Source of the DNA: Paraspadella gotoi
Lineage: Eukaryota > Animalia > Chaetognatha
Length of the DNA stretch: 64,000 nt
NCBI GenBank assembly: GCA_051294375.1
Contig: CM119271.1
Span: 5,118,724 to 5,182,723 of the forward strand
Direction of reading: 5' to 3'
Shown: positions 7,938-62,461 of the stretch, one piece after another
Layout of the letters: every line of letters starts with the position of its first letter
How positions within the stretch are numbered: position 1 is the first letter of the stretch
Program-made: the position numbers and the translations under genes
Notes under the pieces: model-generated
The model's database searches: none
Seen by the model: only the letters and a program-made list of their open reading frames with translations
What the model was told of the DNA's origin: nothing

Positions 7938-9339
7938 GAATTGACGCCGTGGTTGTGGTTGTCATTTTAAAGAGTTGTCAGGGTGTCCACTGTCTATTAG
8001 AATTTACAATGTTCTTATGAAAGCCTATTTAGACAGTGTCATAAGGACTTTCATAAGGACATTGCAAATTCTGTGCTACCTTTTCATCCTGTTACGAATT
8101 TTTCTGTATTTTAATATTCATTATTTTTTTAGAATTAGCTGAAATTGTTAAGAAAGCGTCTGCAAGCAATCCGGTTGAACCAAATGTGGTCAATAAATAG
8201 TTCTTGTTGGTTTAAAAGGGGATTTTCAATCGGTTCGCGAAGCCGATCTTTTTTACAATCACCTTCATCACTTTTGTACGAGGCAGCTGTTTAAGGGAAA
8301 GCTATTGGAACCCAAATCGACCTTGTATAAATGTGAAGTCGCCTTTCCAAACTTACCAATTGACGTCAGAAACGAGAGTCAGTCTTGTTGTGTGAAGTGA
8401 AGATGCCCTCATTGCAAAATGAGGGCATCTTTTCTCCAGTTAACATCCTAATGCCTTGAAGATAATCTTCCATGATAGTTGGATAGAAATCATCATTCTT
8501 AAACTTTGCTAAATCCAAAACGTTTATTGGACCATCCTGCCCTTCACATTTTATTTCCCAAAGTTGCTGGTTTTGCTCCCATTTAAACTATCTTGTGCAA
8601 AGTGTTAGGATTCAGTCTGTTCATGGCTTTGTAAAGGCCGTGGACAGGGTTGTAAAAAAGAAAAAGGTAATTAAGAAAATGGAAAAGGAACAGGAAAAAT
8701 CCCAAAGGTGAACAGAGATGTATAAAAGTAACTTTGGGAGCCTTACTTCTGGTCACACATTCCAATCTGATGATGTCATATCCGGTCACTTCCCTTTTCA
8801 GTCATTTCTGATTCTAATTATAGTTGTCATTGCCAACATCTTATTGACACGCACCGTGCATGCGTGCGAAAAATTAACAGAATAACATCCTGCTGCAGAA
8901 TCCGATTTCTTTTAATTCTTTCTCGCTATCTCTATCTCTCTTTTAATTTTCTCTCACTATCTCTCTCTCTCTGATTAAAGTTCGATCTTTGAGTGTAATC
9001 GCAGGTGTTTTATTCACCTGGTTTTGTAAATATTATTCTTTGGGTAAACACGATTGACAAACAGCTCCACAATTAAATTTAACAATTATTTACAAAGATT
9101 TAAATTTTATTTTTATTTAAATTTTAACAACATATAATTGATAAGTAAGGGAAGCGTCCATTATCGCAAATATTCCCCCCCTCATCACCTTCTCCATCAA
9201 ATGATTCTCCCATTTCCGCAATTTCTTCCTCCACCAACACCGTCTTCAATTGCATCACACCTTCCCGGACGGATCTTTTCCGGTTCTCTTTTCAATTCTT
9301 GTTTCCCTGATGTGATGTAAATGATTTTGTTTTCCCACA

Positions 9340-9485
9340 AGAGTAATAATAAACGGGGTCTGCAGCTTGATCTAGAACCCGGGCGGGACTGGAGCAATTT
9401 CTTTAATTTTCCATCGCTATCTCTATCTCTCTTTTAATTTTCTCTCGCTATCCCTCTCTCTCTGATTAAAGTTCGATCTTGAGTC
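9340..9485 (+). mobile_element. Polinton-like terminus (TIR type A); partial copy at 8905-9030
   Basis: agagtaataataaacggggtctgcagcttgat...tcgctatctct...gattaaagttcgatcttgag, same as 37853, 39576, 40135, 41689, 43427, 43974. Confidence 0.75.
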
Positions 9486-9489
9486 TTGA

Positions 9490-10765
9490 TATTTCACACC
9501 CTATTTCAAATACGAGAGAAAACAATACTTTCTTTGGTTGAGCTTGATTATTATCATAATTATAAGTCCTAATCGCCTGATTAATAAAATCCATGTCAAC
9601 GGTCAAAACGGGTTCGAGCATATCCAAACAAGTTAACAACTCTCAAATGATTAACGTCTAATTCTTTCAAAATCAAAAATGGTAAAAAAGTCTTTCTTAT
9701 AGGTTTTAATTAGTTTTTTTCCTTTCGTAAGCCACTTCCTCCTCATTTCCTGGAATCGCCGTGAGTTCTTTCAGGTCGTCAATTTCGCTATAACGCCAAT
9801 GCCTTTGCATAGTGTACTGACGAACTTGCATGTCTGTCACACATCCACGATTGTTAATCTTTTCATCGTGAACCAATATCCCCCGTTCCTAAAGAGTCTC
9901 GACATGGGAAGGAAAGTCTTTACGAAAATTCGGTTCACGTGTACTAAAAGTTCTAGTACTTGAAACATTTTTATTGTTAAAAAGTTTATTTCGATCCGTT
10001 CGTGACTAACGGAAAATCCACCGTTCGCAATTGCACCATTTTTGGCCATGTTTATGGTTTAATTCTAAAAAATTATAATGAATTTCATTGATCAAAAAAT
10101 ATAATTCAATTTTAATCAAACTCATAATTTATGATATTAAAGAAGTTAAATAATATAGCTAATGTTTAATTTATAATTAAAAAATTATTAATAATCAATA
10201 TTCCCAATAATCAATATTCCCAATACAAAAAATCAATGTATTTAATAATTAAGCTTTTTGTCTAATCAATATTTTTCCCAAATAACAAAAAGATTGCTAC
10301 GAAGCAATTTCATTTAACTCCTTTCACATTCTTTTTACAGTTCGCAACGATTAACTCGTCTTTGGTCAGAGACAAACCGAAACAGACAGGCGAACAAAAG
10401 AACAAAGAGCTAGAATGGGTCTCATAAACGTATGGTTTTATCTGCATGGTCGCCTTCGCGATGGCCGAGGTTTGCGGATGAAAGACGCTGATGGCATAAG
10501 CTAAATGACTCGAAATCGGGAGTTTCATGCCGGATAAACTGTCCATGTTATGAGCTAAACTTTCTTTCTTGTCAAAGTTGGATTTTAAATCCCCTTCGTC
10601 CCACATTTCAATCAACTTGCGGGCTTCTTCGTAAGATATAAACAGCTTCAATGGACCAGAAGCCTTCTCCACGCGCTCGCTAGAACCCGCCCCGACAAAA
10701 CGTTCTTTAGACACTTTAAAATATCCCTCGCCTCCTTTCAAAAAAGAATGTGTAATGTAATGCAA
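9490..10765 (-). pseudogene. Decayed copies of the element's right-arm genes (homologues of 22572-23150 and 21779-22240)
   Basis: NFLTIKMFQVLELLV vs NYLTIKMFQVVELLI; GYFKVSKERFVGAGSSERV..SPVCFGLSLTK vs GYFKVTKERFVGSGSSERV..SPVCYGLSLTK. Confidence 0.85.
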
Positions 10766-11099: not shown

Positions 11100-12582
11100 A
11101 CAATATAAAATTTATGGATTTATCCGAAGAATTAAATGAAGAAGATGACAATTTTTAAAATGTCGTGATGTCAAAAAGGACATTATCGTCATCTTCATTT
11201 TCATTTAATTCTTGGGATATATTTGAAAATTCTATATTGTTCCTTTGTTGAACCAAATTTATTTGGCTCAACAATTTATACGGCGGGAGGGTATTGTTTC
11301 ACTTTGGTCTTCTTCGGCATCTTCTTCTTCTATTGATATATTTTTTTATTTTAGTTTTTTTTCCTTACTTGAATTAACATTTTTAACATTTTTGAAAATA
11401 ATAATAACAAAAGTTAAAATAAAAACTAAAATCAACAAATTTGCTAATCCGATTGTTGTCATGATCCAATTTGAGCTATGAAAAAGAATAAAAAAAACCG
11501 AATTAAGAAAAACAGAAATATATAATAATGATGATGATGATAACATTTAACAATATAAAATATTCATATTAATTTTTTACTTGTTTTGTTGACTCGTGGT
11601 TGGGTCTGCCGATCTTGTAATTGAATTGGAAGTCGAACTGTGAAATAAAAAAAACGAAAAAAAAAACAACTAAAGATGTACACTTTTAAAAAATGAATAT
11701 AAACAATAAAAAATATGAGAACAACTTTAAATTCATTACTTGTTATTGTACGATATTGTAGACTCCGCCGTCGAAGCCATGGACGCCGCTGACGTCACCA
11801 GTGTTGAGGGCGCCTCTGGTGACGTCATCGGCATGGACGGCGTCGTCTTTGACGCCGGTGACGTCGCCGAGGTAGATGGCATTGACATCGGCGACGTCAC
11901 AGACGTCGATGGCACCGCCGATGGATTCTTAGGGGAGACGGAGATGAGATGAGACCGGGTTCATGGACGAGGAGGAGAAAGGCGGGTTTATGGACGACGA
12001 GACGGAGGACGGGAGGACGTTCGGGGTCGCCGGTGACATCGTTGCCAACGAAGGAAAAATGGTCCATGACGTCACCGACGTGGGATTTACGGACGAAATG
12101 GAGGATGGTGTAGCCGATGACGTCCTTGCCCATGGATGAAAGGTCACTGGCGTATTTGTTGTCACTTTATTCGTCCGTGTAGTTGACGTGCACGTCGCCA
12201 TCGTCGTCGTCCATTTTCCTTTTTAGTTCATCGGTTCAAATGGATTGATAGCGACATGATGGTGGGGTTGAGGGTTTATAAAGGAGGGGAAGATTATTTG
12301 TTGGGCGATGTGGAGGGGTAATAAATGGGAGTTAATTTGAATTAAATGGGGAGGGAAGGTAATGGTTAAAACAGTGGGGGTAAATAAATCATGATAATAT
12401 GCAGTATTATTTAAATGTACAAAGGTGATGGAGAAGCGACGACGACGTCTAGAGGGATGTCTTCCATCTCCATCTCCAATGTACAAGATTTGAGTGGCGG
12501 TGGTGGTGTCGGCCAACTCAAATATTGTGGGTTCTATGATAGAGCTTGATTTGTTGCTTGCGTTGTTGTTGTCGTGTCTCAT
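11100..12582 (-). pseudogene. Mucin-like TM gene copy plus upstream His/Pro-rich ORF
   Basis: S/T/P-rich exon, TM NWIMTTIGLANLLILVFILTFVIIIFK, and LNNTAYYHDLFTPT..HHHVAINPFEPMN. Confidence 0.65.
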
Positions 12583-12661: not shown

Positions 12662-13920
12662 TTATAGCGTCATTCCTGACGAAGCAGTCAGGTAGGCGGG
12701 CGTCCCAGGTGGTAAACTTGGCATAGTGACCCAAGTGACCAGTGGTAGGGGAGACTCGGGGAGGTTTGGAGAATCATGTGTGGAATGAAAGATGCTGGTG
12801 GGTGGAACCTCTTGATTCATTATGGTGTTGGAGGAAGCAGTGATTGATTGGGTGTCTAGAAGGGGAGGTTCAATTCTACCATTAAGACTTTGCCAGTACC
12901 ATAGCTGAGGAGGTATTCCATAGTCATTTAACCACTTTGCTGGAAATTCATCATCATAGTATTCTTTAATAGTATCCAAATCAAACAATGACCTGATATT
13001 TGTATACATTTCATCTCTTAGCATATAACTGGTAGGGCACTTATGAAAAGTTAAAGGGACATTAATACAGATAGTAGCTCCTTGTTCTTTGTGAATGCTT
13101 AATAGGGCCTGTTTGCTGTCTCTAAGCACATCATCTGCAACTTTTATAGCGCTAGCATAGTTTTTTTCATCTGCATAAATCATGGTCATCAATCGAACTT
13201 TCGCACTCAAGAAGACAATTTTCTCTAAGTCAAAATGTTTAGCTGGTATGAACTCATAATAAGGGATGCAAATTTTTAGCCTTCTGGCTCTTAAACTCTG
13301 TGATGTCACTTAAACAGCTGAACTGACAATAATCTCCTCTTCATTATTTGACTTCCATTTGTATGCTCTGGTTGTGTAGTATTTTTTAAGCTCCTTAAGT
13401 GTCCGTGTCAGTTCTTTTTCAGTGTTATCAGCCCCCTTCCCTTCTACCCATTCTGTTATCCACTGGATTCTACTTTGTCTAATTTCTGGTAAAGTTAATA
13501 ATGACAAGTATACAGATACCACATCAGCACTTTCCTTGTGGAATCTCATCTTTTCCTCTGGTTTTGCCAAATTGACTGCTTCTTCTAGCTGATTCAATAT
13601 TGGGTTTTCATTTAATATATCAATCATTGACCCATCACTCAAAAATATTTCTGCTGTTCTAGCATTTTTCCCTGAGGTTTCAGTGTCCCTTGCTTGGCTG
13701 AGGTGATCATCGGGACCCTGCTCACCTCTTAGCGAAAACCCGATGGCTGAGCTGGAAGTGAAGTGTTGATCGATGGGAGTGGAGGCTGTGGAGTTTGGGC
13801 TCGAGATGTTTCAACCTGGGTGGCCTGAAGTGGAGCTTGTTGGTGCTGGGCACCTTGAGGAGGAGGTTGTGGCTGGTGCTGGGTGTTTTGAAGTGGAGGC
13901 TGTGGGTTGCCCTGTGCCGT
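12662..13920 (-). pseudogene. Intronless foreign ORF fragment (~400 aa, one in-frame stop at 13310, Q/P-rich N-terminal part), unidentified
   Basis: ORFs 13310-13642 and 12662-13309 are in the same frame; CpG-poor and compositionally unlike both flanks. Confidence 0.5.
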
Positions 13921-14874: not shown

Positions 14875-17056
14875 TCATCGCCCCGTCTTTTCGTCGTCCC
14901 TCGTCGTCGTCGTCTCTCTCCTCCTCTCTTCGGCGTCCAAGATAGCCGCGGCTCGAAACGCCAGATGATGGTTCAAGGGGAGGGAATAATAAGGACTCAG
15001 CCAGAAGCGTTTGTCCTGTTAGTAATATATATAAATATATATAAATATCTATATATAAATATAAACAAAAAAAATTCAACTACTAACTTTGAAATTGCTG
15101 AGGGAAATTTTTTCCAATTCGACCTTGAACATGGAATATCCGACCGTTCTAAATTGAGTTAGTCTGTGTCGTCTGGGCCTGTCATGACTCAAGACGTCTT
15201 CGAACAAGTCTGTCGTTATAATAATAACAATGATATTTACATAGTACTACATAAATGTAAATCTCTCTCTCTCTCTAAAAACCGACCTGTATTCGTCAAA
15301 CGTTGAGCCACCAATCTCTTGGTTATTCCCTTACATCTGGCGCTTTTTTTGACGACGACGAGCCTCTTATCATCGTCATCAACTCCTCCTCAAAGGGCCA
15401 GGTCCTGGCGACGTATCCGTCGGGATCCCCAAAAGTGGCCAGAGTTTCCAAGGAATAACATTTTGGCTTGAGGGATACGCATTTGTACAAAAATCCGGCA
15501 CCGGACTCGTCTGTTATTTTAAAAAATGAAATGAAATAAAGTAAAAGGGAAAAAGGGTGAAAGAGAGAGAAAGAGAGTGAGAGAGAAAGAGAGAGAGTGA
15601 GAGAGAAAGAGAGAGAGAGAGAGAAAAAAAGATTTTTTTCTTTCTCGCACCTTTTAAACAACTGAGTCGATTCCTGTTATAATCCCTCCACAGACGTAAT
15701 AAAGGCATCCTGTCCTTATTTTCCAACCAATATGGATGAGTTTCTTTGGGACTATAAATGATATAATTATATATTGTACCAATTTCATAATATAAATAAT
15801 CTAATAATGATAATTCAATAATCAATTATTATTATTTATTAGTCTTTAACGTCCAAAATGAAACATAGATTGGCCCAATCGCACCAAAACGAAGCCAGTC
15901 GGCTCTCGTATCGAAAAGCCAATACAAACGAATCCTAAATTATTATTATTTATTAAGTAGAATATTAATCCCCAAAAAAATCGGCTCATCGTGTCATTTT
16001 ACTGTAATCTCACGATCACGTCGGTCCTTGCTTTGTTAAATACTCTTCTTAAATTCATTTGGAAAAATAAAATATTGTGAAATTTTGAATTTTCCAATAT
16101 GATACCTGGATAATTAATTAATTGATTAATTAATTGAATAATTAAATAATTTCTGCGGTAAATAAAATACCTCCGACCATTATCGGTTTGTTCAAATTTT
16201 GAGACATTGCTTTACCTATAATGATAATAATAATAATAATCCAAAATGAGTTTATCCTGCTGCCGCCGCATCGCAATAATCGTGACCCATCGACTCATCG
16301 AGTCGTCGGGTCTCTCGAGTCGCGACTATATACTTAGTAACTAAAGCCTACCCCCCTCTCCCTTCAAGGTGAGTACTATCGCAAATCGATCTCGGTACTC
16401 GAATAGTCGCGAACCGAGGGCGTCACTCGATGAGCCAAGGTGCCATGATTAAAGAATAAAGTTGGTAAACATATTATCACGATGATAAAAATACATAGAG
16501 ATTGGTAAAATCTTGATAAATTAAATGTGTGCTGCCATCGTCCTCAGACGATAAAGGATCGAAGCCCACTTCGCGATTATTGGCAACGGCGTAGCGCTCA
16601 GAAACTTCGCATATGCCTCCGCGAATCATGCGATTGTACGTTAAATACTGAAGGGAATCGGCTTTGCTAAATAATGGGATTTCCACCTTGGTCAAGGACA
16701 GAAAAATGTCGAGACTGATTCCTGCGAAACAGTAATAGTGGGTCGGCGAAATGCCGTGAAGTTTTATCGTGTTTTCTATAAAGTATTCGAAAACTGCTTC
16801 TAAGGTCAAAGTGTCTATCGTATTGTAAAATAGAATTATTTGACCAAAGTTGCTAAAGTTGAACATACGATAGATGGCGAGTGTTTTTTCGTAATCTTAT
16901 CGACTGCAAACTTCCTTGGACATATCGTCGGTAAATTCCTCGATGAACGGAAGGTTGGGATCGCTCAAACGGTCCAACGAAAATGCCGAATATGGCATTT
17001 TTATTTTTTGTAAAATTTGCATAAAATTTTGCCCTTTAGCTTCCCCATAAGTTTCC
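14875..17056 (-). pseudogene. Intron-containing protein-primed family B DNA polymerase (Polinton/Maverick/adintovirus type), copy 1, decayed
   Basis: Exons give KMPYSAF..DTLTLEAVF..PTHYY..IRGGICEVSERYAVANN..YQDFTNLY / GKAMSQ (internal deletion) LNKPIMVG / ..NDT / DSFVL..LDVKDY / PKETHPY..CLK / DESG..LKPKCYS..CKGITK / ..KISLSNFK / DKRF..LPLNH; stop at 14875. Confidence 0.9.
16283..16447. mobile_element. MITE-like imperfect hairpin inside a PolB intron
   Basis: ctcatcgag/ctcgatgag and tcgcgactat/atagtcgcga inverted pairs. Confidence 0.45.
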
Positions 17057-18119
17057 ACCTATGACCTATGACTACACGATTCTACGGCGATGTTCATCTG
17101 TACATCGGAATCTCCCAAAACCCTTTCTACACACTGGTGCCATCTATCGAAATTTTCCCCTAATAGTTCTACGCTAAATCTATTGAAGAATGATCTGTAA
17201 CCTAATAAATTTATTAGGAAATCTTCCCCCTCTTCCCAATTACTAAACTCTACCTTACTCAGAATTTTATATGATATAGTATACATTTCAAATATATCCC
17301 ACATAAGAGAGTAAGAAAAACCGGTAGAAAAATGTATCATGTTGAAAAACTGTTAGTCCGGTTAAGTCACATACTGTAGAAACGGGGTCCGATTCAAACA
17401 CACTTTGTCTTTTATTTCTTTCTCGCTATCTCTATCTCTCTTTTGATTTTCTCTCGCTATCTCTCTCTCTCTTTTATTTGAACTCGGCGAACTCGTTGAA
17501 GTCGAGATAAGAGATCTTGAGATCTTTTTTTGAGTTTGATCTTTTGTTTAAATTATTGAGTTACTTAAGTACATCTACAAACCAAGGTATAATTATATTA
17601 TCTTTTGTTTAAATTTTCTTTGACTCGAATTTTCTTTGACTCGAATAATCTTTTTAAGTACAATCTTTTAATTACTCTCTCTCTCTCCTCTCTTCTCTTT
17701 CTCTCTCTCTCTCTCTCTCTTTTCTCGATCTTTCTCTCTGTCCATTTTTGCACGTGAATCACACCTGATTTTTGAAAATGGATTTGAGGATTTGAGTAAA
17801 TACAAACATTAAACATTTTGATGTCAATCGTATCTAAAAGCTTTTTACAATGCTTATCAGGATTGTTTGATTTGAGATTTAACAGTAGTTACTTTTTTAG
17901 ATTTAAAAAAATTAAGATATAATATCGTTAAAATGAGTATATTAAATTATAAAAAAAAACAATGACACAAAAAATAAATGAATGATTAATTAAATATATC
18001 AATTATTTAAAAAATTAGCCAGCGTAAAAAACCCGTGATTTTATTTAAAAAATAAGAAAATTTTTAAAATTAAGGGAAATATTGAATTAAACGATTTAAG
18101 AGAAAGAATTAATTAAAGA

Positions 18120-19918
18120 GAGCTGGTGATGTCGAAAAGCACATCGTCATCACTTCGTTTAATTCTTCTCCAAATGTTTAACTCAATATTTCCTTTTAAA
18201 TTAATTTGGCTAATCGGGGGTTTTTGATGCTGGCTAATTTTTTGGGGGAAGGGATAAAAGATGAGAACATATTTACATTGTGGGTTGCAAGGGGGGGAAA
18301 TTTATTTCCTCTGGTTCTTCCTCTTCCTGTTCTTCAACCAAATATTTGACGATTTTAATTGTCTTTTTTCTTTTACATTTTTCTTTACCATTTTAAAATA
18401 ATAATAATGAAACTTAAATACATAATTTAAAATCATCAAATTACCCAGAGAAAGAGTTATTAACATCCAGTTTGTTGAAGACTTGGACACTGGGGATGGG
18501 TAGGATGAGCTGGAGGAGGAATTTGCAATCGAGGTCGCCTGTGACGCAGATGACGTCGCCGGGGTCGATGATATCGACATTGTTTTGTTTACCGGCGACG
18601 TCATAAACGTCGGCGGCCTAGACGAGGTCGGTGTAGTTGTATCCGTTTGCACCCTCGGGGACGACGCCGAGGGTGCTGAAGATGCCGGGTCTTTTGATGT
18701 GTTACTTGTAGATTTCGGCGACGCCGGAGCGGTGCTGCTCAACGGCGCCGACGAAGAACTTGGCGCCGACGAAGAACTTGGCGCCGGGTCTCTTGATGTC
18801 CTACTCGGCGACGCCGGAGCGGATGTGCTCAACAGCGCCGACGAAAAACTTGGCGACGCCGGAGCGGTGCTGCTCAACGGCGCCGACGAAGAACTTGGCG
18901 TTGGGTCTCTTGATGTCCTACTCGCCGACGCCGGAGCGGATGTGCTCAACGGCACCCACGAAGAACTTGGCGACGCCGGAGCGGATGTGCTCAACGGCGT
19001 CGCAGCTTTCGAGGTGGCGGACGAAGATCTTGGCGACGCCGGAGTGGTTGTCTTTATCGGCGCCGAAACCCTTGACACCGCAGACGAAGTATTTCCCAAC
19101 GCAGTTGTGCTTAACGGCGAGGTTGTTGTAGTTGAGGTGGTTGACGCCGGAGCGGGTGACGTGCTCAACGGCGTCCAAGGTGATGACGACAACGGCGCCG
19201 GAGCAGATGACGAGCTCAATGGCGCCTGTGTTCGGGACGTCGTCGTCGTCCATGACGACGTCGCCGATGATTCTTTTTTAATAATTCATTGTGGTAAAAA
19301 AGGGTTAATGGGGACGGAATGAGAATAGATTGAATAAACTGGGAGGGGAATTTGATTAGCAACGTTAAGAGGTAATAAATGGGGGTTAAGATGGACGAGG
19401 TGGGGTGGGAGGTGAATATGATAGATCGAGGGGATGAGTAATGTAAAATGGTAAGCTGTATTGTTAAGAACGGACAATATGGGGTGTTTTGGTTAAAAAT
19501 AATTATCGCTCGGGTTATGATTTGGGAATTGGATTTTGAATTTCATCATTGGATTCATAAGCGGAATCGGAGTCTGAATCCATGTTGAAGGTTATGAAAA
19601 AATTTTTTAGTTTAGAAAAATGAAATAACAAAAAAGTGAAAACGAGGAAGAGGAAGAGACAAAATAAAAACAATGAAAAGAGACTTTCATCTTGTTTTTT
19701 TTATGATAAAGAAAAAAAACATTTTTTGGTATTTCATTTTTTTATTTTATAAAAATAAAAACTGGGTATAATTATATTAACAATAATAATGAATGAACTT
19801 ACTTTTTGGAGTCGTAGTTTTTTTTGAATGCTGCGTAAAATGATGCACTTTTGACGGGTTTAATTGACCCGAAGTAAGAGAAAAGAAGAAGACAAAAAAG
19901 AACAAAAGTAAAATGCAT
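18120..19918 (-). pseudogene. Spliced type I membrane mucin-like glycoprotein gene of the element (left arm)
   Basis: Signal-peptide-like exon MHFTFVLFCLLLFSYFGSIKPVKSA (19918-19803, gtaag donor); S/T/P repeat exon; TM NWMLITLSLGNLMIL..; tail with KNPRLxQINL. Confidence 0.65.
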
Positions 19919-19937
19919 TTTAATAATGGGATGAAGA

Positions 19938-19980
<43 letters not shown>

Positions 19981-20789
19981 GAAAAAAAAGTTAGGTTAGG
20001 TTAGTTTTAAGTTAGGTGAAGAAAGAAAGGAAGGAAGGAAGAGACGCGAGGACAAAGTGCAAAGTAGAAAAATGAAATGAGATAAAAAGATTTCACAATG
20101 AATTGAAACTTAAAAATATTAAAAAAATTGGAAACTTCTTATCTATTTTTTTGTGTGATTTTAAGATATGACGAAAAGACTCTCTCAAAATTCATCTTGT
20201 TATTTTTAATAATAAAAAATAGAAAAGAAAAACTCTTTTTTAGTATTATACTTATGTTTAACAAAATAATTTTTAAATGTGTAAAACTGTATGAGAACAA
20301 ACTTACTTTTGATGACGTAAATGATTTTGTTTATTTTAAGCGAATGAAGCGGTGAAGTCGAAAAGGGTTTTACTTATTTTTTAATTAATTAATTAATATA
20401 AAAAGAAAAAAGAAAAGAAAAATTGAGTTTTATTTTTAGTTAGTATTAGAAATAAATAAGGAAAAATATGAGAGTGAAAGAAAAATGCAAAAAAAATAAA
20501 AAGAGACAAAAGACGCAAAGAAAAATGTAAAGCCTTTTTTATTTTTTTGTTATTTCAAGATCTTTACCGGGAAAAATTTTTGTCATTGTCGTTGTTGTTG
20601 TTAATGCACTTATCGATTAAATGGTAAAAAGATTTTTTGATTGATAAGGATTGTTCACAATTTGCCGGGTCTAACACTCCCCCCTAAGACCCCTAGCGCC
20701 CACTCTCATTTCATCCAGGTATAAATAAAATCAATTTTTCCAGACTTCTACTTTCGCGGGCAACAGAAAAAACTTTTTTTACCTTCAAA

Positions 20790-21300
20790 ATGAACGGAGA
20801 ACACATTTGCATTTGTAACATCTGCCATTTAGGTTTTAATAAGACTAATAAACGTTGCATTGGATGCGTTCAAGGTTTGAGTTAATTGATAAATATATAA
20901 AATTATTTTTTTTGAATAAATTTAAATTATATAACTGTTTTGCAGGACATTTATATTGTAAGGAATGCATTGATAAATTACAAAATTTATTCAACGGACC
21001 CATATCTCTTATGTCCACTTTGTAAAACACCTTTTGAAAAGGTGTGTAAAAACTGCGGCAGTTTTGTCTATCAACTACAAGTTTATAATCACGAAGTTGA
21101 GGATTGCTCAGAGTATATCGCCCAGTTAAAAAAAGAGAATAAAGATTTGAGGTAATTAAAACAAATTATTATATAATTGATAGGTTAAATATTTTTGTTA
21201 TATTTTTTTGAAATTATAATCTTTAAGAGAAAAATTGGAAAAGATTTTTCAACGACAAAAAGAAAAAAGAGACAATCGTTTGAAAAAACGCTATCGCCGA
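20790..21300 (+). pseudogene. Spliced RING-finger gene of the element
   Basis: TATAAA at ~20720; CNIC..CVQG|HLYCKEC..CPLCK across an intron at ~20875-20945; one frameshift. Confidence 0.65.
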
Positions 21301-21778
21301 GAAGAAAAAGAAAATGGCAACTCAAAGTTCTAACAAAAGGTAAGAAAAAAGTTATATGAAAAGGTTATGGTTAAAACTTTAAAAAATATCTTTTGTTGAT
21401 TTTATTTTTTATTTTTTTTATTATTTTATTTATTAATATTTAAAAAAAATAGCGATGAATATTATTAAAATATTTTTTTTTAAAAAAAGATGGGCCGAAG
21501 ACTTGGAGGAAGACGAGTTCGAGATCGTTCAAATGGGTTCGTCTTCTCCAATCTGTCGGAGCTCAACAACATCAACAGCATCAGCTTCGTCAGAGATATG
21601 CAAATAAGATAGGTTTTTATGTGTCTTTTAAAAAAAACAGATATGACAATGCTCCGTCGGGGAAACGAGTGATGATTTCTCACAAGCGCGAGGAATCAGG
21701 TATAATTTTAAAATGATATTGATTAAAATTAGTTATACGATAAGATAAGCTTTTTTTGTTTTTTGAATTTTTAGCTCG

Positions 21779-22240
21779 GTGATAAAACCATTATCACAAT
21801 ATTGCTTTGTTCATTACAAAAAATCCGAGGGATATTTCAAAGTTACCAAGGAACGTTTTGTGGGTCTGGTTCGTCTGAGCGCGTGCAAAAAGCTTCTGGT
21901 CCGCTTAAGCTTTTGGTCTCTCACGAAGAAGCGCGCAAACTCGTTGAGATGTGGGACGAGGGGGACTTAAAATCAAATTTTGAAAAAAAAACAATCTTTG
22001 GCCTTATCAGTAGATTCGCTTGCAGGAATTAAAATTCCAATTTCTGAGCATTTGGCTTACGCTATTAGCGTTTTTCGTCCTCAAACCTCGGCGGTTGCCA
22101 AGGCGACGATTCAACTAAAACCGTATATTTACGAGGCTCATAGTAGCACATTGTTTTTTTGTTCTCCGGTTTGCTATGGATTATCCTTGACTAAAGAAGA
22201 GCTGATTTCTCTTCTCGATTTTTTTCGTTTTGAATTATAA
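21779..22240 (+). pseudogene. Element gene with two internally similar domains (possibly PC4-like ssDNA-binding)
   Basis: Frameshifted; LKLLVSHEEARKL and GLSLTKEELISL helices after beta-rich segments. Confidence 0.45.
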
Positions 22241-38010: not shown

Positions 38011-38015
38011 GGTGT

Positions 38016-41445: not shown

Positions 41446-41688
41446 TCCTTGGATTCGGGCCCAAGCTTCATTGGTCAAGTCATCCTTCCCAGGTGCTGCC
41501 GACATGCTCATCTTGGCAAATATTTCATCCACAGTTCGACAAGGCATGTACTTCACAATCCTACTCAATCCCGATCTATAAGAAACGGGAACATACTGCT
41601 GGGAACAAAATTCAACATCCTCCAAGTGATAATGGATCACACTAGGAGCATCCAATGGCATATCCTTACGGACAAACCCCATGTCATT
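41446..41688 (-). other. Flavivirus-like NS5 fragment (duplicate of 37610-37852), in frame with the mucin-TM ORF 40750-41751
   Basis: Same motifs; ..EAWARIQG|LAPSSLSTTSKAP.. Confidence 0.85.
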
Positions 41689-44446
41689 AGAGAGATAATA
41701 ATAAACGGGGATTGGAGCTTGATCCAGAACCCGAGGCGGGGACTGGATCACTTTCTTTAATTTTCCGTCGCTATCTCTATCTCTCTTTTAATTCTCTGTC
41801 TCTATCCCTCTCTCTCTGATTAAAGTTCGATCTTGAGTTTAATTGCAGGTGTTTATTTCACATGAATGTTATTTTTTAGGTAAACATGATTGACAAACAG
41901 CACCACAATTTTCACAATGATTGGGATACAAAGCAGCAATATTGTAAAATTGATAAATGATAAAATCAAGAAATTTTTGATGTTAGTTAGTCCTTGGATT
42001 TGAATAAAAGAAAGTTTTTTTTCAATGACTGCATTGTTGGATTCATTCATTAATTCTGCGGGTGGATAATATCCGTATGGTTTGATGATTAACTCGGTTT
42101 CATCTTCTAACGTCAGGTCCATGGTAAGTTTGATTTCAAAGTATTTTCTTCATAGACAAAAGTGTCTTCTGCTTCGAAGGTTGTGCAATCGAAGTTATCA
42201 GGATCACAGAAGAACTCGTACAGTTTATCGAAAGGTCCATTTTTAACTAAATGCTTTAGTTCTCTGAATGGTATTTGAATCGAGCACATAGCAAAGATTG
42301 GTTCTCTCTGATGAATTTGCACGAACTTGACTTTCTTGTTATTCATTGCACAGAAATAAACGTCTTCGCAAATCTCGAAGGCCTTTCCCTTTTTAATTTC
42401 CATTTTACTTTAATTAAGAAACAAAATTGAAAAATCATATAATTAAACAAATCAAAAACGCAAATCAATACAATTATTTACAATGATTTTACTATTCTAA
42501 ATCTAAATCAATACATATTTATAATTGAACAATAAGGGGGAGCATCCATGATGGCAAAAACTCCCCCCTCTTTGTCACTCGAGTCTACCTCCTCACCCAT
42601 CCTCACCAACTCCTCATCATCTTCAATCAACACTCTCCTCAACTCCATCACTCCTTCCCTCACCCTAATCTTCTCGGGCTCTCGGGTACATCGTTCCTCC
42701 CCGATGTGATGCAGGTGTTTGGGTTTACCCACATCACACGATGAGAGATCCGTCTCGTAGAGGCTGATGAAAATATAGAGAAAAAGTTAGTTTGAATTGT
42801 AAGTTTTAAAAATAAAGTTTTATAATCTTACATGGAGATTAGACCTTCTACATATAGTAGAAGGTCTTGCGCGTTTGCCCGGTCGGTCTTGTTGACCGGG
42901 CGCCCCATGAAGAATGATGCCCTTAGGAGGCACCATTGGGGTTGGGGGATCATGGGGCCGCAGGAGTAGGGGAAATTTTTTTCCTCCTCCCCGATTACGT
43001 AATCTTCCATCCTCTCAAAAACATACATCTTCTCAGAGATGTATGTTTTTAAGTCTTTAAGTCTTTAAGTCTTTAACGCTTTCTAGGCAAACCATGTCTG
43101 GGACATGGTTTGCCATAGCTTCTTCATGAAGCTTTTTCCAATCGATATCTGCCATCTGTTAATATAAATTTTTACATTCAATCAGATTCATAGAGTTCGA
43201 GAATCTTATTACAATGATCAATAAAAAAATTAAGAAAAACGCTAATGTTGATAAAACTTTTAACTACGAAATTTAAACAAGAATATTCTGGGTCTGGTCC
43301 TCCAAGAAACAAGATATCAAAATCTTTAGCATCGTCTTTAATCCATAGTGTTGCCGTTAGTCCTTCGCATAGTTTACACTCGAATTTTTAGAAGTTGGGA
43401 GATCGATTTGGGTTGAAAAGAAAATCAGAGATAATAAAAAACGGGGTCTGCAGCTTGATGTAGAACCCGGGGCGGGGACTGGAGCAATTTCTTTAATTTT
43501 CCATCGCTATCTCTCTCTTTTAATTTTCTCTCGCTATCCCTCTCTGATTAAAGTTCGATCTTGAGTTTAATCGCAGGTGTTTATTTCACATGGTTTTTTA
43601 CAAAGTAAACAAAAGTAAACACATCACAATATTATTTTTTAGGTAAACAAGATTGACAAACAGCACCACAATTTTCACAATGATTGGGATACAAAGCAGC
43701 AATATTGTAAAATTGATAAATGATAAAATCAAGAAATTTTTCAACATTGGTTAATCCTTGGATTTGAATTAAAGAAAGTTTTTTTTCAATGACTGCTTGG
43801 ATTCATTCATTAATTCTGCGGGTGGATAATATCCATATGGTTTGATGATTAACACGGTTTCATCTTCCAACGTCAGGTCCATGGTAAGTTGTATTTTCCT
43901 TCATAGACAAAAGTGTCTTCCGCTTCGAAGCTTGTACAATCGAAGTTATCGGGATCACAGAAGAACTCATACAAGAGATAATAAAAAACGGGGTCTGCAG
44001 CTTGACCTAGAACTTCGGACGGGGACTGCAGCTTGATCCAAAACCTGACACGGGGACTAGATCACTTTCCTTTTTAATTCCCTTTAATTTCCTATCGCTA
44101 TCTCTATCTCTCTTTTAATTCTCCGTCGCTATCCCTCTCTGATTTTAAACTCGAGTGGTCGATCTGAAAATACGTAACCGTTTTTGAATTCGAATTATTG
44201 ATAATACTTAAGTACAAATGACGAATTTTTACCCTGAGAATTTTCCATATGATGAACTAGGATTTCGATTACATTTACAGTAGATACTGTTTACAATGAA
44301 TTAAACACCTTTGTTATGACTACGAGAAATAATATAATTATTAACATTTATACAGTGAACATAAAAAAAACAGAACAAGAACATACAATTACCCAAAAAA
44401 TTGACCACCGTAAAAAACCATAGATTAACCTAAAAATAAATTTGGT

Positions 44447-46460
44447 TCAACAAAGGGAAAATATAATATTTTCAAATATATCCCAAGAATTAAATGAAAA
44501 AGAAGATGACGATAATGTACTTTTTGATATCAAAATGTTGTGATGATCAAAAAGTACATTATCGTCATCTTCATTTTCATTTAATTCTTGGGAAAGATTT
44601 GAAAATTCAATATTTTCTCTTGGTTGAACCAAATTGATTTGGCTTAACCTAGGGTTTTTAACCGTGGCCAATTTTTTGGGTTGGGGAAAAATGGGGAGAA
44701 CATATTTACACGGGGGGAGGCTTCGGCATCTTCTTCTTCTTCTTCTATCCTATGTAATGTTTGTTTGACTTTAGTTTTTTTCTCTCATTTGAATTTTGAA
44801 TTTACACTTTTAACTTTTTTAAAAATAACGATAACGAAAATTAAAATAAAAACTAAAATTAACAAATTTCTCCCAGTCCAATTGTCATCAAAATCCAATT
44901 TGAACTATGAAAAGAATAAAAAAACCTGAATTAAGAAAAACGGAAATATGATGATAACATTTAACAATATAAAATATTCACATTAATTTTTTTACTTGTT
45001 CTTGATCACTTGATTTGGATCCTGCCAACGCCGTGACGTCACCGCAGTTTTTGGCGCCCTCTGGTGACGTCATGGCCATGGACGGCGTCGTCTTTGATCC
45101 CGGTGACGTCGCCGATGTAAGATGGCATTGACATCCGGCGACGTCTCAAACGTTGATATGACGATGATGATTGATGACCTCGCTGAAGAATTTTTAGGGG
45201 AGGAGATGAGGGGCCGCCGGTGACGTCGTCGCCCATGGAATAAGGTCCGTGTGACGTCACCGACGCGATGGAGGAGGAGGGAAGGGAATTTGTAGACGAC
45301 AGGACGGATGACGGCCGTGGAGGAGTAGGAGACAGGAGGGCATTGAGGATGACGGACGGAGGATGGAATGGAGGGCATTGAGGGATGACGACCCGGAGGA
45401 TGGAACGGAGGGCATTGAGGATGCGGGACGGAGGGAGGGCGGACCGGAGGATGAGACGGAAGTGGCTTACCGGTGACGTCGTTGCCCATTGAGAAAAGGT
45501 CTGTGACGTCACCGGCGTGATGGAGGAGGGTTGCGAGACCGCGTTCGGGCGATTGCGGCGGACGTATTACGGACGACGTAGACGGGAGGACGGGATGTTG
45601 TTTGGGGTGGTCGGTGACGTCGTTGCCACTGATGAAATAAAAATGGTCCGTGACGTCACCGACGCCGTATTCACGGACGAAAATGAGAATTTAGCCGGTG
45701 ACGTTGTTGTTGGATGGAAGGTGGTTTGCGCCATCACTGGCGTATTCCTTGATGCTTCATTCGTCCGTGAAGATGTCCATGTCGCCGTCGTCGCCCATTT
45801 TGCTAATCAAACCATTGGTTCAAATGGGTTGATAGCGATATGGTGGTGGGGTTGAGGGTTTACGTAAGATGGGAAAATTACTTGTTGGGCGATGTTAAAT
45901 GGGAGTAAATGGGAATTAATTTGGACTAAATGGGCTGGGAAGGTTATAGGTAAAATGGTGGGGGTAAATAGATCGTGGTAATAGGCGGTGGGTTCTATAT
46001 ACTACAAGGCGCGGGTTGGGTTCAATGTTAACGAATCGTCCTAGGGTTGGAGTGTTATTTTGGTTATTGTCGTCCGCGAGCCATAATGCGCTATCGGGAT
46101 GGGGAATTACCATTTTATACCCGCGGTATGAATTTTTTTTTTAGTTTAGTTATCAAGAAAGAGTAGTATGAGGTAAGATGGAAGAGGAAAAAGAAGAAAG
46201 TAAAAACAAGTGGGAATAGACTTTCATCTTGGTTATTTTACACGATAAAAAAAAGAAAAAAATTTTAGGGTATTTCTCGTACATTTTGCGGGAAAATCAT
46301 AAAAGAGTAATACTGTATGAGTAATAACAATCTGTTTCGAACTTTACTTCTCAGCGGCGTTGTTCCAGTGAATGAACGCCGTCGCGGTTTAATTGCGATT
46401 TAGTAATTACAAGAATAGAAAGAGAAGAAACAAAGAAAGTTATTTAAAAGACATTTTTTG
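44447..46460 (-). pseudogene. Mucin-like TM gene copy (second subtype, like 11100-12582)
   Basis: S/T/P exon, TM remnant, ATVKNPRLSQINL tail, upstream HHHIAINPFEP ORF remnant. Confidence 0.6.
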
Positions 46461-47183
46461 AAAGAAAGATAGAGAGAGAGCGAAGAAAGAGAAGGTAAGG
46501 TAAAGGAACGAAGGCGCTCTCGGAACGCCGTTCCTCCCGAGTGATACAGGTGTTTGGCTTTCCTGTATCACACGATGAGTGATCTGTCTCGTAGAGGCTG
46601 ATGAAAAATATAGAGAAAAGTTAGTTTGAATTGTAAAATTGTAAAAAAATAAGTTTTATAATTCTTACATGGAGATTAGACCTTCTACATATAATAGAAG
46701 GTCTTGTGCGTTTGCCGGTCGGTCTTGTATGACCGGGCGCCCATGAAAAATATGCCCTTAGAGGCACCATTGAGAACACGGCATCATGGGGCCGCACGAG
46801 TAGGGGAAATTTTCTTTCCTCCTCTTCTACCAGATGATTCTCCATCTCTTAAATCATACATCTCCTCAGAGATGTATTGATTTAATTGAGTTTTCACACT
46901 TTCCAGGGCAAACCANNNNNNNNNNNNNNNNNNNNNNNNNNNNNNNNNNNNNNNNNNNNNNNNNNNNNNNNNNNNNNNNNNNNNNNNNNNNNNNNNNNNN
47001 NNNNNNNNNNNNNNNNNNNNNNNNNNNNNNNNNNNNNNNNNNNNNNNNNNNNNNNNNNNNNNNNNNNNNNNNNNNNNNNNNNNNNNNNNNNNNNNNNNNN
47101 TGTCTGGGACATGGTTTGCCATAGCTTCCTCGTGAAGCTTCTTCCAATCTATGTCATTCATCTGTTAATATAAATTTTTACAT

Positions 47184-47615
47184 TCAATCAAATTCATAGA
47201 GTTCGAGAATCTCATTACAATGATCGATAAAAAAAATAAGAAAAACGCTAATGTTGATAAAACTTTTAACCACAAAATTTGAACAAGAATATTCTGGGTC
47301 TGGTCCTCCAAGAAACAAGATGTCAAAATCTTTAGCATCGTCTTTAACCCATAGTGTTGCCATTAGTCCTTTGCATAGTTTACACTCGAATTTTTGGAAG
47401 TTGGGAGATCGATTTGGGTTGAAAAGAAAATCCCTCAAGGATTTTAATCCTACAATGTTTGCCTTTAGATTTTCGACCGTCCACATGAAACTCTTGACAA
47501 TTTTCATTCGATTGTCTTTTTTAACATATTTGATGTTAATGACCGCATCCTTGTTAAAGGAAATGGTCATTCCATGAAAAAGTTTAACAACGTCTCCAAC
47601 TTTTAGTTTATCCAT
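47184..47615 (-). CDS. Element hypothetical protein (143 aa); truncated copies at 39330-39575 and 43175-43426
   Basis: Intact ATG ORF; the other copies are cut by a TIR at gaaaagaaaatc. Confidence 0.7.
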   Translation of the reverse strand: MDKLKVGDVVKLFHGMTISFNKDAVINIKYVKKDNRMKIVKSFMWTVENLKANIVGLKSLRDFLFNPNRSPNFQKFECKLCKGLMATLWVKDDAKDFDILFLGGPDPEYSCSNFVVKSFINISVFLIFFIDHCNEILELYEFD

Positions 47616-47846
47616 TACTTAATTTGATAAAAAAATTTAAAAATTGTAAACACAACCCATTGATGACGATGATCATAATTAAAATATAACAAAGACTACT
47701 ACATTAACATTGAAGATGATCAAATATAACAAAGACTACTACATTACATTTTTGATAAAAATTGTTTCTTTAAATTTCACACGCGAATTTATTAAATTTT
47801 TTAAAAACTAAAAATCCCCTTTTTAACACTAATAAATAAAAAAATC

Positions 47847-48407
47847 TTAATTCAAAACATTCCCCCTTACCCAAATCTTACTCCTATTAAACATCTTAAA
47901 CCCACTCATCCCACCCCCAAAAGAGTTTTTCGATGTAAAAATCGTCATCGTCAGCGTCGTTGTCGTAGTATTGGCACTTGAAGATGGCCGTTTTCGACTA
48001 GCCATCTCCAAGGCCTCCACCGTCGCCCTCGTCGCCTCCGCAGCCACCACCGCCGATCCTACCGCCCTCGCTGCCCGCGCCACCGCTTTTGCGGTTTTGC
48101 AGGAGCGAGGGGGTCTAATCGGCGGAGATGCTGCTTCCGCCGCCGCCACTGCCGCATCCTCGATGACGGCGTCTACCGTGAAGGTCGTCGCCGCCACCGC
48201 CTCCGAAGTCACATCGGAGATTCCATCGCCGACGTCTCCTCGAACCTCCCAGAGGCCGTCTTCAGATGCGTTATGGAGGGGGGTAAGCGAGAGAGGGAAA
48301 ACTCCCTCACCCCCCTCCAGCGCATCCTCAGACCGAAGTCGTCGCCTCCGTCTCCGCTGCTTGGCGCTCCAACGCCGAACGCTGATGAAGGCGATGACGA
48401 CGACGAT
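47847..48407 (-). pseudogene. GC-rich TM + cytoplasmic-tail fragment of unknown gene
   Basis: IIVVVIAFISVRRWSAKQRRRRRR stop-transfer pattern. Confidence 0.4.
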
Positions 48408-48556
48408 GATGTACAATCCATTTTATTTTCCTTCTTACCCGTGGTATTGAAAACAGCCCCCTTGGGGACACCCAACCTCATTCTCTTCTCCTTTTCCTGC
48501 ACAATCTCTATCCAATCTTCTCGGTCCAGCAAGTCACCCATATCTTTCCCATATCT
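48408..48556 (-). other. Second, divergent flavivirus-like NS5 fragment
   Basis: YGKDMGDLLDREDWIEIVQEKEKRMRLGVPKGAVFNTTGKKENKMDCT; protein almost identical to 26880-27022 but third codon positions largely differ. Confidence 0.9.
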
Positions 48557-51348: not shown

Positions 51349-53057
51349 CTTTCATCCTTCCTATCACGGATCTGTTGTGGTCCCTCCATCGTTTCAATAC
51401 GTCCAAACGGTCCAAATTTTCTTTCCAATAGGGGTGAGTATCTTCGGGACTGAAAAAAAAAAAGATGGATGATGGTAGGCTGGTATAGACTTTTTCTTTT
51501 TTACGCAAATAATAGTCATTCTTACTAATCTTTCACGTCTAGTATGAAGCAAAGATGAGCCCAATCTCGCCAAAATGAAGCCAACGGACTTTTGTAACGA
51601 AACGCCAATACGAAAGAATCCTAATTCCCATAATAAATTTTAATTAATTTCTAATAATTTTACATTAATAAAAATTATTATTTTTTTTTTTTTTTTGCGC
51701 TTCTAACCGTATCGTTTTGATGCACGCGCGCGCTAACGTCCGTTCGAGCTTCGTTAAATACTCGTCTCACGTTGAAATGATAGAAAGAAATATTGCAAAA
51801 TTTCGCGTTTTCCAAGACGATCGCTTAATTAATTAATTAATTAATTAATTAAAATTTTTTTAACAAAAAAAAAAAAAATTTTGTAAATTTTTTTTTAATT
51901 TTTTTTTGTTAATTAATTAATTAATTAATTAATTAAAAGTAAATTTTTTTTTTATTTTTCTAACCTCCCATAATTATAGGTTTATTGAGCGTACAGACGT
52001 TTTTTTCAAACTTGATGAAGATCAAAGAATCGCTCAAAATCTTGCAAGAATGAAAATCGGCTCGGTGCATGGCTCGTTGAGCGAGGGGTTTGTCAAAGTA
52101 TAAGCGCACATTGTGTTTACCACGAACATTTTCGATACTCTGTACATAAATAATTTTATTATTAAAATTTGTTATATTATTTTAATATATTACTATACTC
52201 CCCTTTCCGTACAAGGAATTTATCAAAAGCTTGAAATGATTTTTCAAGTAGTCCGATTGGGCTTCGTTTCTCTTCCGAGTAAAATGATCCACGAAAGGTT
52301 CGATATATTTCCTTTGTTGATAGCGAAATCCCATGCTTATTTTTCGAACCTCGTATCCCAAATCGAGACACAACTTCAAAACCATATAATTAATAACGTA
52401 ATCCTTTTTTTCCCCCACGCAACATATCAATTTAGGGTAAATGCCTAATTTTATCCCATATTTTTTAGCCAATTTAACGGTGCGCGGACTCAATTCGTTT
52501 TCGGGAACTGCTCGTTTATCGGCGATGGGAGGGTAACCGCTCATAGAAGAATGCAAATGATCCGGTAAATATGTCGCATTCGACTATGAAACCGATATCC
52601 GCTTCATGGGTCCAATTTTTGTAACGACCGTCTTGGGTCATTACAAAAATTTCCGCGAGTTCCTCCGGAGAAAGACTTTTAAAATCTTTCCAGGGTACAG
52701 GGATATTTCATGGCGCGACCGTACAAATTCTAAAATAATTAAAAAATAGCTAAGAATGATAGAAAGATGAAAAGAGAAAAAAGCGACGACTACTATTATT
52801 ACCGTAAAGTCTTGATACATCAAGAAGCAACTACCGTCGTCCTCCTCGCCCCCCTCCTCTGAGGAATCGAAACCGACTTCGCGATTGTTGGCCCGAGCGT
52901 GACGTTCGGAAACGGTACAAACGCCTCCTCGTATCATTCTTTCATATGTTAAATATTGGAGGGATTCCGATTCGCTGAACAAGGGAATCTCGACTTTGGT
53001 CATCGAGAGAAAAATATCTAGTCCGATACCCGCAAAGCCGTAATAGTGGGTGGGCTT
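51349..53057 (-). pseudogene. Intron-containing protein-primed PolB, copy 2 (divergent relative of copy 1)
   Basis: IRGGVCTVSERHARANN..YQDFT^NLYG..KLLINSLYGK^SIENVR..LNKPIIMG^A..NDT^DS..DY^PEDTHPY..IGRMK^; introns 52730-52802, 52140-52202 (GG donor), 51824-51964, 51621-51707, 51450-51525. Confidence 0.92.
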
Positions 53058-54224
53058 ATCCTTATCACTGATGGCCAGAAGGTGTAAACTTATATCTCTG
53101 ACATCTCTTAATTGACGTTGAGAAGGGAGTCTGTAATGATGAACTCGATTTGTATCGAGTTCATGTGAATTTTGGTCGGCTTCATGGACGAGCCCGAAGT
53201 CAACGTTTTAGGTAAAAAAAAACTCCTCCTAGTTTGCTCATAAGTAAATGCCCCAGGATTTCTAATTAAAAAATGGGACGTTTGTTAGTACTATTGGGGA
53301 CATTTCAATGGTACTTTGCTCGTTTTCGTATTCATTGGTCAGTGGTCAATGGTCACGTTTGAATATTCGTGAGCCACCACCACCTCCTTAACACGAGTTT
53401 CGTCGTCGTCGTTGTTGTTGTCTTGACATCTTGGAATTAAATTCGAATATATTGGACCATCGTGGTCAGTTTCTCTCTCATTTGTACGATGCACTTCGAA
53501 AAACGTTGTCTCCTCTTCATTGTTGTTTGCGTTTCTAAATTCATTGTCCCACAAATACTCCCCCCTTCGTTTTCATCTTCAGAAAACGTTGATTCCCAAT
53601 CATTGTTTGAATAATAAATATTCTGACGGGTTATCTGATAATTGGTTTTTTTTTTAATTTTTATCAAGTTAGTCAAATTTTTTTTATCGTGATTGTTGAT
53701 CAGATAGTTCTTTAGTTTTTATATTGCGCCGTGAATGTGTACTGATAACAGGATTTGGCGAGAATGTGTACTGATAACACAATTTGGCGAGAATATCAAT
53801 GTCTATATCTCTATGGTTTTTTCCTATTTTTGAAAGCAGTTTCGAATTCCTCATGAAAAGTTGATAAAAGGAAATATTACTCTTTTTAGAAAATTATTTC
53901 ATTAAGTGGATCAAAATCCTAAAAAACTATTATCATTAACTTATGATTAAATTTTAGTATAAAAAATATAGTTCTTGGAATTTTTGGCTAACTTAATGAA
54001 ATAATTTTTGATTAAGACTTATATTTTTTTTGATGAGGAATTCAAATCTGCTTTCAAAACTAAAAAAAAAATATTTTAAAATTTTGACAATGTATAAATA
54101 TGGGCGTATGCGAAAATTGTAAAATTTCAAAATAATAATAATAATATAATTTAATGTTCTTTGGTCCAAGACTTCATGATTAACTATTCGAATTTTGATT
54201 TGCAACTTTCACTACGCCTTACTA

Positions 54225-54319
54225 ATCAGCGAGAGATCGAGATCGATTAAAAGTAATTGTGACTCAATCGGTCCCCGATTTTACCACTGCAGTTTTGATC
54301 GGCTTTATATTATCTCTCT
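54225..54319 (-). mobile_element. Diverged Polinton-like terminus facing left, near the right edge of the cluster
   Basis: Reverse complement agagagataatataaagccg..ctgcag..ggggaccgatt..ctctcgct resembles TIR types A/B. Confidence 0.5.
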
Positions 54320-55164
54320 CCTCTCCATCTTTCCCCCATCGGATCCGCCTCTCTCCGGAATTCAAATGGGAGTGAAATGAAAAGAATTGTTATAACTCTT
54401 AACTGACTGACTGTGATTAATATTTGTTCACTTCATTAGTTGGAAAAGTCCCTTACGTTTATGTTCCCATAAAGCAAATTGATAATACTTCACATCATAG
54501 CAACTGGTGCGCTTGCCTTCCAGCAGCTTTTTTTGCGACATTTTATCCCTCTTATTTGATAATTCAATTTTAAACTCATTGTGAAAAAAATTGAGACAAT
54601 TATTTTAAATATTTTTACATTTATTAGTTAGTATAATGTCTTGGGAGCATGACAAAAAAATCTTATTAATATAATTCAAGGTTTAGTTAGGCAATAGGCT
54701 CTTGCCAGATCATTGTTCTTTTGTAATTTTTTTTCACGCTGAAATTTATTTTTTATAAGTTTTAACTAAAAAACTATAAAATGAAAAAGGCTGTCATTGT
54801 GCTTGTGAATAAGTTTTTGACATTCAGATTGCTCAGGCACATACTCCTAGGTCTATACCTGAAAGATAAAACGAAATTTTTCAAACATTTTATTTTTTTA
54901 TAAAAATATATGTCATAACAGGAAGGTACTATTCAAATGCAAAAATTTTTTTTTTAATTCTAACATGCCATTGATGAGCACATAACTCAGAAAATAAGCG
55001 AGCTGGACTACTCCCATTTGAAATCCGTGTAAAAACATTTTTTTCTTTCCTAAATATTGCTTGCAGACGCTTTTTTTAAAATTGTTTTTAGATGCTGTGA
55101 TAATAAAAACCATGTTTTCCATGTAATAAAATAATTCCTTTGTAATTTATTCTCTTTTGTGTAC

Positions 55165-62364: not shown

Positions 62365-62461
<97 letters not shown>

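Follow-up and report, generated by a model that had tools for sequence, protein, structure and literature searches.

We analysed a window of 64,000 nucleotides of the chaetognath Paraspadella gotoi (assembly GCA_051294375.1, contig CM119271.1, positions 5,118,724 to 5,182,723) in which a 46-kb archive, a patchwork of repeated and foreign pieces, extends from ~8.2 kb to position 54320. The pieces come from Polinton-type DNA elements, jingmen-like RNA viruses and a long interspersed nuclear element (LINE), and their coding sequences are strongly biased to the minus strand. The archive starts past the stop codon (7935-7937) of a host paracaspase (MALT1-like) gene that is expressed and points into it, with the first foreign piece at ~8200. 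We consider it probable that this locus is an antisense small-RNA source, resembling a cluster of PIWI-interacting RNAs (piRNAs), that is fed by read-through from the paracaspase gene, and we predict small-RNA output from it.

Minus-strand polarity of the archive

The minus-strand polarity of the archive is real. A first-pass annotation of this DNA had proposed a binomial test of fragment orientation; applied to units that we delimited ourselves, with duplicates and possible single captures merged, this test gave 16 units on the minus strand and 1 on the plus strand (p = 2.7e-4). Because either orientation of the intact Polinton-type element at 17306-24353 places one of its two arms on each strand, this element was excluded from the unit count. 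Pieces other than arm copies are on the minus strand in eight of eight cases (p = 0.008). When bases are oriented from anchors that we set, 17,405 are minus and 3,470 plus, the latter comprising 3,311 from the right arm of the intact element and 159 from two low-complexity matches.

Pfam searches with 134 minus-strand open reading frames (ORFs) returned Flavi_NS5 (E 3e-8), Flavi_NS5_thumb (5e-9 and 8e-7), RVT_1 (6e-4), DNA_pol_B_2 (1e-8) and zf-RING (3e-4). The 83 plus-strand ORFs gave no Pfam match below E 0.003, and all matches to virus or element families below E 0.001 are among the minus-strand ORFs. A profile of 12 NS5 relatives matched the window in 12 rows, all on the minus strand and falling into seven distinct stretches, with none on the plus strand. 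All nine blastn matches of the right arm outside the intact element are reversed, including those at 9490-10730, 30140-30421, 35886-36101 and 38000-38219; the reversed match at 11380-11439 is probably low-complexity. An annotation-free comparison of open frames outside the right arm found the minus strand most open in 57 windows and the plus strand in 27, with 10 ties (p = 0.0014, the windows not being independent). The first-pass annotation had assigned the DNA polymerases (PolBs), the NS5 pieces, the LINE reverse transcriptase, the mucin-like and RING copies, the foreign ORFs and the remaining right-arm copies to the minus strand, and this observation is confirmed. Its two exceptions also stand, namely the right arm of the intact element and a piece near 33530 that was put at ~190 bp and measures 170 bp (33530-33700, RING-like).

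We compared codon positions in 18 copy pairs. Third positions account for most of the differences within the divergent pairs of NS5 (27 of 32), of PolB1 and PolB2 (48 of 71) and of right-arm genes (74 of 129, 81 of 154 and 30 of 45), so the members of these pairs had diverged as working genes before they were captured. Amplification of a single ancestral fragment, which the first-pass annotation had named as a possible counter-explanation, therefore fails for these five divergent pairs. Copy pairs at ~95% identity look like local duplicates, some of them with differences spread evenly over codon positions. The core of a near-identical 3.8-kb tandem pair, which adjoins an N gap, differs by 1 substitution and otherwise mostly by one-base indels; the pair may be a recent duplication or a false duplication of the assembly. 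Judged from these comparisons, local duplication adds bulk to the archive and does not explain its polarity.

Probable transcription from the paracaspase gene into the archive

Because all 6 host introns in the range 4600-14250 are removed in the RNA contigs of the public run X1, and bins with unique introns have the depth of exons only (6.98 against 6.7 expected, and 14.7 against 14.7), X1 represents RNA with negligible DNA. Cover of 7820-14250 is gapless (20 of 20 bins, depth 8.5-48, against 18-20 for host exons), intergenic parts are no less well covered than ORFs, and X1 contains a fraction of 0.92 of 1,003 sampled words from 24400-34000. One contig of 1,887 nt contains spliced host exons followed by 1,015 nt beyond the stop codon, thus entering the archive and passing the first AATAAA (8192); its remaining 489 letters agree with the upstream exon lengths. 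Because another contig (1,914 nt, 12330-14243) spans the single-copy foreign ORF A and its flanks with 0 mismatches, this RNA comes from the locus and not from free virus.

The strand of the RNA was deduced from the contigs only. The two minus-strand GT-AG introns of the mucin-like gene are covered in X1 and are skipped by none of the 15 joints listed (of 16). Because splicing should have removed these introns from a sense message, the RNA is more likely to be plus-strand, and it fits a read-through transcript that would be antisense to the fragments. The paracaspase gene, which the first-pass annotation had overlooked, is the likely driver. The long plus-strand transcript postulated there has thus gained RNA cover, a join to a spliced host gene and two retained minus-strand introns, its strand being read from unstranded contigs.

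We propose that polymerase passes the end of the paracaspase gene and would thereby produce one long plus-strand RNA, antisense to the messages of Polintons, jingmen-like virus and LINE. This RNA would be cut into piRNAs, or into small interfering RNAs (siRNAs) if the host lacks Piwi, and new inserts would be retained in antisense orientation, those in sense orientation being lost or trimmed. Because such a transcript would carry both right-arm orientations (9490-10730 and 30140-30421 against 21826-23140; 67-84% alike) as well as palindromes at 11036-11264 and 44391-44681, it could also form double-stranded RNA.

Several points weigh against the polarity or against a read-through source of antisense small RNAs. 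Splice-signal counts lack a significant minus preference (donor GTAAG 21 plus and 36 minus, p = 0.06), a pyrimidine-rich acceptor motif is more frequent on the plus strand (98 against 52, probably for compositional reasons), and AATAAA is not depleted there (103 plus, 86 minus). Unit boundaries are our own calls, the strand of pieces recognised solely as ORFs rests on ORF openness, and the intact element places 3.3 kb in sense. Third positions show little or no excess in the comparisons of the 38019 ORF with the intact arm (19 of 49), of mucin-like copies (18 of 50), and of the 33166 ORF with 45810 (19 of 42) and with 19289 (56 of 116). The RNA evidence is a single public run in the form of unstranded contigs, possibly from the sample behind the assembly; it was examined on 4600-14250 by contig placement and on 24400-34000 by sampled words, about two thirds of the archive lying outside these ranges, and depth in repeated parts is a sum over paralogs. 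Runs X2 and X3, with just 4 and 1 short records on the region, were not used. Continuity between gene and archive comes from one contig that spans the junction, and a contig across two genes does not prove a single molecule. Some invertebrates are without a piRNA pathway, as portions of PMC5805368 and PMC8191739 state.

It is unlikely that the archive is instead a graveyard of Polintons that is read through passively and plays no part in defence, in which sense inserts were lost through poly(A) or splice disturbance, or element ends were joined one way by recombination. Most of the sequence is indeed Polinton-type, local duplicates are present and, of 9 aligned terminal repeats, 7 have the same orientation; because the arms of the element point outwards, end fragments would automatically give minus-strand genes. 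However, the same direction is shared by pieces that do not represent element ends, namely the two-strain NS5 pieces, the LINE, both PolBs and the foreign ORFs, and the right-hand repeat at 54320 also adjoins minus-strand genes. All these pieces also lie downstream of the stop codon.

We regard as quite improbable that the same antisense small-RNA locus has its own plus-strand promoter, as in flamenco, and that the contig joins overlapping transcripts. Overlapping RNAs are inseparable in contigs, a promoter-like motif block lies at 8720-8800, and 12-14 kb has a slightly greater depth (27-35) than host exons (18), but cover runs without a break from the last exon to 8952, through the sequence upstream of that block and the block itself, and its depth equals that of the spliced exons. 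Sense (minus-strand) expression of element genes or virus fragments, for instance as domesticated proteins, is very unlikely: some long ORFs persist (ORF B with 228 codons, a mucin-like one with 327), but X1 leaves two intact minus-strand introns unspliced while removing all 6 host introns in range, intergenic cover equals ORF cover, and NS5 and PolB are broken. An origin of the polarity in assembly error, or in a single ancestral fragment that was amplified locally in tandem, is scarcely credible and largely refuted for the archive as a whole, since the near-identical 3.8-kb tandem beside the N gap, the ~95% pairs with even codon-position differences and the poorly assembled right flank are outweighed by the involvement of unrelated families, by five divergent pairs with a coding-selection signature and by RNA contigs that reproduce 7557-8952 and 12330-14243 across fragment junctions.

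Captured pieces and their surroundings

The features of the window are collected in Table 1. What the first-pass annotation had called a DNA virus is a Polinton/Maverick-type element by its ends, target duplication and terminal repeats. The intact copy has terminal inverted repeats of 174 bp (90.6% identical), within the 100-1500 bp used as a Polinton criterion, together with (AG)3//(CT)3 ends and a 6-bp target duplication, and these three traits are given as Maverick hallmarks in parts of PMC8097293 and 10.1101/2023.08.22.554363. Because no core gene (PolB, integrase, ATPase, protease or capsid) lies inside it, we consider it a non-autonomous derivative and not a full Polinton member; a motif hunt across the window for integrase, ATPase and protease gave nothing convincing, and a capsid was likewise not found there.

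The two broken PolBs are 70% identical over 92 amino acids and belong, directly or via each other, to the protein-primed Pfam family. The PolB pieces had no useful match in PDB, and none of 61 candidates in viral contigs matched PolB2. By eye, both PolBs are apparently interrupted near the first polymerase motif. In the mucin-like gene at 11270-12420 the introns keep phase and the last exon matches intron-less copies, with relatives at 32915-33524, 35296-35716 and 44165-46154. Spliceosomal introns were noted in Polinton-type genes at 11476-11739, 29100-29373, near 16480 and at 52700-52800.

Among the NS5 pieces, which the first-pass annotation correctly placed on the minus strand, those at 26519-28348 are not separate fragments but belong to a single collinear capture that is interrupted over 440 bp. 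The ORF at 26402-27157 encodes an NS5 RNA-dependent RNA polymerase (RdRp). In PDB it matches NSP1 of jingmen tick virus and two chains labelled simply 'RNA polymerase' best (E 1e-32 to 9e-31), other flavivirus chains reaching E 2e-6 or weaker; the methyltransferase part was separately confirmed (flavivirus methyltransferase, E 2.6e-5). Identity to the 12 database relatives is 35-43%, and 10 of these are proteins of 928-1072 amino acids on contigs of 3.1-3.6 kb, which we take to be the size of jingmen segment 1. By these matches, the NS5 pieces are closest to the segment-1 NSP1 of jingmenviruses. A thumb piece lies at 37617-37847, with its tandem copy at 41443-41700; in viral contigs, neither of 2 NS5 candidates matched. 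The LINE stub continues the RdRp in frame, and the fusion at 26519-26520 is a possible footprint of LINE-mediated capture by template switching.

Low CpG (observed/expected, o/e, 0.26-0.67) is common to ORF A, the 8.2-kb piece and the NS5 pieces, the ratio being 1.2-1.6 for host exons and for the majority of element genes. For ORF A, none of 1,998 candidates matched, PDB gave 0 matches, viral contigs 0 of 3 candidates and the Atlas no usable match for either half; its predicted fold has a mean confidence score (pLDDT) of 34. ORF B (pLDDT 29) had 0 matches in PDB and 0 of 7 candidates in viral contigs. Two matches of ORF B in a search of representatives were rejected as repeat-rich, and a metagenome match in a contig of bacterial type covers 41 residues and is due to chance. 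Two related motif blocks, at 8720-8800 and 48750-48980, contain many copies of ACTTCCGG and TGACGTCA and resemble ETS/CRE-type viral promoters; seven repeats of 16 nt lie in the second block.

In the host sequence, exons are GC-rich and introns AT-rich. A search with the paracaspase exon matched none of 343 candidates, and the idea that paracaspase is missing from insects, which PMC5978004 did not support, was dropped. Near 3300, a paracaspase exon shifts frame at the expected His-Gly motif, by eye probably a one-base assembly error. A host intron holds two tandem copies of a 350-nt repeat (6002-6588) with X1 contig depth up to ~43,000, an RNA joint that jumps back 349 nt and many small hairpins (fold z -1.8). 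Rfam returned no family for this repeat, with 1 chance-level match, and a scan gave 0 matches at gathering score; we assume that it could be a retrozyme-like or SINE-like (short interspersed nuclear element) abundant RNA. Short palindromic inserts resembling miniature inverted-repeat transposable elements lie at 2642-2795, 4918-5083 and 53817-54070. The flank at 56839-64000 is poorly assembled, with a 32-nt satellite and error-rich inverted duplicates (59990-60363/61362-61704 and 60490-60957/63078-63503).

Table 1. Features of the 64,000-nt window (positions are those of the window)
Feature	Position	Strand	Remarks
Host paracaspase (MALT1-like) gene	554..7937	+	Pfam Peptidase_C14 E 2.8e-8; MALT1 best PDB match E 4.5e-4
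Stretch in one spliced RNA contig	7557..8952	+	record 1: 1,887 nt, depth 18
Decayed ORF-like piece	8200..8640	-	CpG o/e 0.63; no match in Pfam and PHROG
Reversed diverged right-arm copy	9490..10765	-	terminal-repeat pieces before it at 8905, 9340
Mucin-like membrane gene	11270..12420	-	GT-AG introns 11638-11739, 11476-11580
Foreign ORF A	12665..13900	-	single copy; one internal stop; RNA-virus-like composition; CpG o/e 0.26
PolB1, decayed Polinton-type DNA polymerase	16480..17305, continuing near 24354-24928	-	split by 7-kb element
Intact non-autonomous Polinton-type element, 7,048 bp	17306..24353	.	left-arm genes -, right-arm genes +
LINE reverse-transcriptase stub	26283..26519	-	Pfam RVT_1 E 4.5e-5; follows NS5 in frame
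Jingmenvirus-like segment-1 capture, methyltransferase to RdRp palm	26519..28348	-	profile positions 166-647; 440-bp interruption
Left-arm (mucin-like) copy	28318..30129	-	
Reversed right-arm copy	30140..30421	-	84% identical
Foreign ORF B	30500..31185	-	228 codons from ATG; CpG o/e 0.95
RING-gene module and local duplicate	31341..35128	-	Pfam zf-RING
5' start (ATG) of RING-like gene	33530..33700	+	sole plus exception; beside divergent promoter region
Reversed right-arm copy	35886..36101	-	67% identical
Near-identical 3.8-kb tandem pair	36810..44480 (36.8-40.6, 40.65-44.5 kb)	-	NS5 thumb, mucin-like, terminal-repeat and other ORF pieces
ORF module	46516..47618	-	partial copies 38841-39575, 42678-43426
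Second jingmen-like RdRp piece, other virus strain	48401..48541	-	94% amino acid identity to first
PolB2, decayed Polinton-type DNA polymerase	51963..53207	-	Pfam DNA_pol_B_2 E 1.4e-8; PHROG 1907 E 7.6e-6
Right-hand Polinton-type terminal repeat	54200..54320	.	right edge of archive

Relation to known systems

The kind of locus is already known; its cargo, Polinton-type genes and two jingmen-like strains, and its paracaspase driver differ. According to sections of 10.1101/2022.08.22.504762, core piRNA clusters of mosquitoes start directly after expressed genes and hold mostly antisense virus fragments. With the read-through clusters of Aedes, Culex and Anopheles described there, the P. gotoi locus shares its start after an expressed gene of the same direction, its one-strandedness, antisense flavi-like fragments with rare sense exceptions and, to the extent that one spanning contig shows it, RNA cover continuous with the upstream gene. 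Unlike the mosquito clusters, it lies behind a paracaspase gene and carries mostly intron-bearing Polinton-type genes, together with jingmen-like NS5, and it is known from DNA and RNA contigs. It resembles Drosophila flamenco as a long single-strand array of antisense fragments; flamenco has its own promoter and gypsy long terminal repeat (LTR) elements, whereas no LTR element was found in the archive.

NS5-derived inserts are also present in other invertebrate genomes as jingmenvirus-derived and X2 endogenous elements, and part of PMC9752770 describes a copepod element with duplications typical of piRNA clusters. Unlike those elements, as far as that part covers them, two strains share one locus here, one of them in frame with a LINE reverse transcriptase, and the nearest proteins are 35-43% identical. 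Polintons/Mavericks, in the portions of PMC8097293 and 10.1101/2023.08.22.554363 that describe them, have in common with our element the terminal inverted repeats, 6-bp duplication and ends, with a PolB of the protein-primed family nearby, but the 7-kb element is without a polymerase and spliceosomal introns are present in the cargo genes. In starfish, anemone and whelk, parvo-like and rhabdo-like elements that are expressed in antisense give rise to small RNAs with a 5'U, as reported in part of PMC6085071; host-driven antisense expression of virus fragments outside insects would be common to those cases and to ours. The former are contigs without genomic context in which small RNAs were seen, whereas here a locus and a candidate driver gene are available from DNA and RNA contigs. 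Judged by titles and the beginnings of abstracts in a limited literature, we found no publication on this cargo combined with a paracaspase.

Because the concept is established in mosquitoes, the surprise is limited. We regard as doubtful, though worth stating, the further idea of a heritable antisense archive that is directed against Polintons, a jingmen-like virus and a LINE and is driven by an immune-signalling paracaspase, such that immune induction of this gene would raise small-RNA output. The locus preserves fragments of an undescribed jingmen-like virus lineage together with three unassigned genes. If the idea of an immune-inducible archive is true, read-through clusters would extend beyond mosquitoes, and Polintons would be recorded in the same way as infecting viruses. 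If our main reading is confirmed, a DNA element, an RNA virus and a retrotransposon would all be recorded by the same host transcript at a single testable locus, and this locus would test read-through as a general route to antiviral small-RNA clusters as well as the policing of Polintons in this manner.

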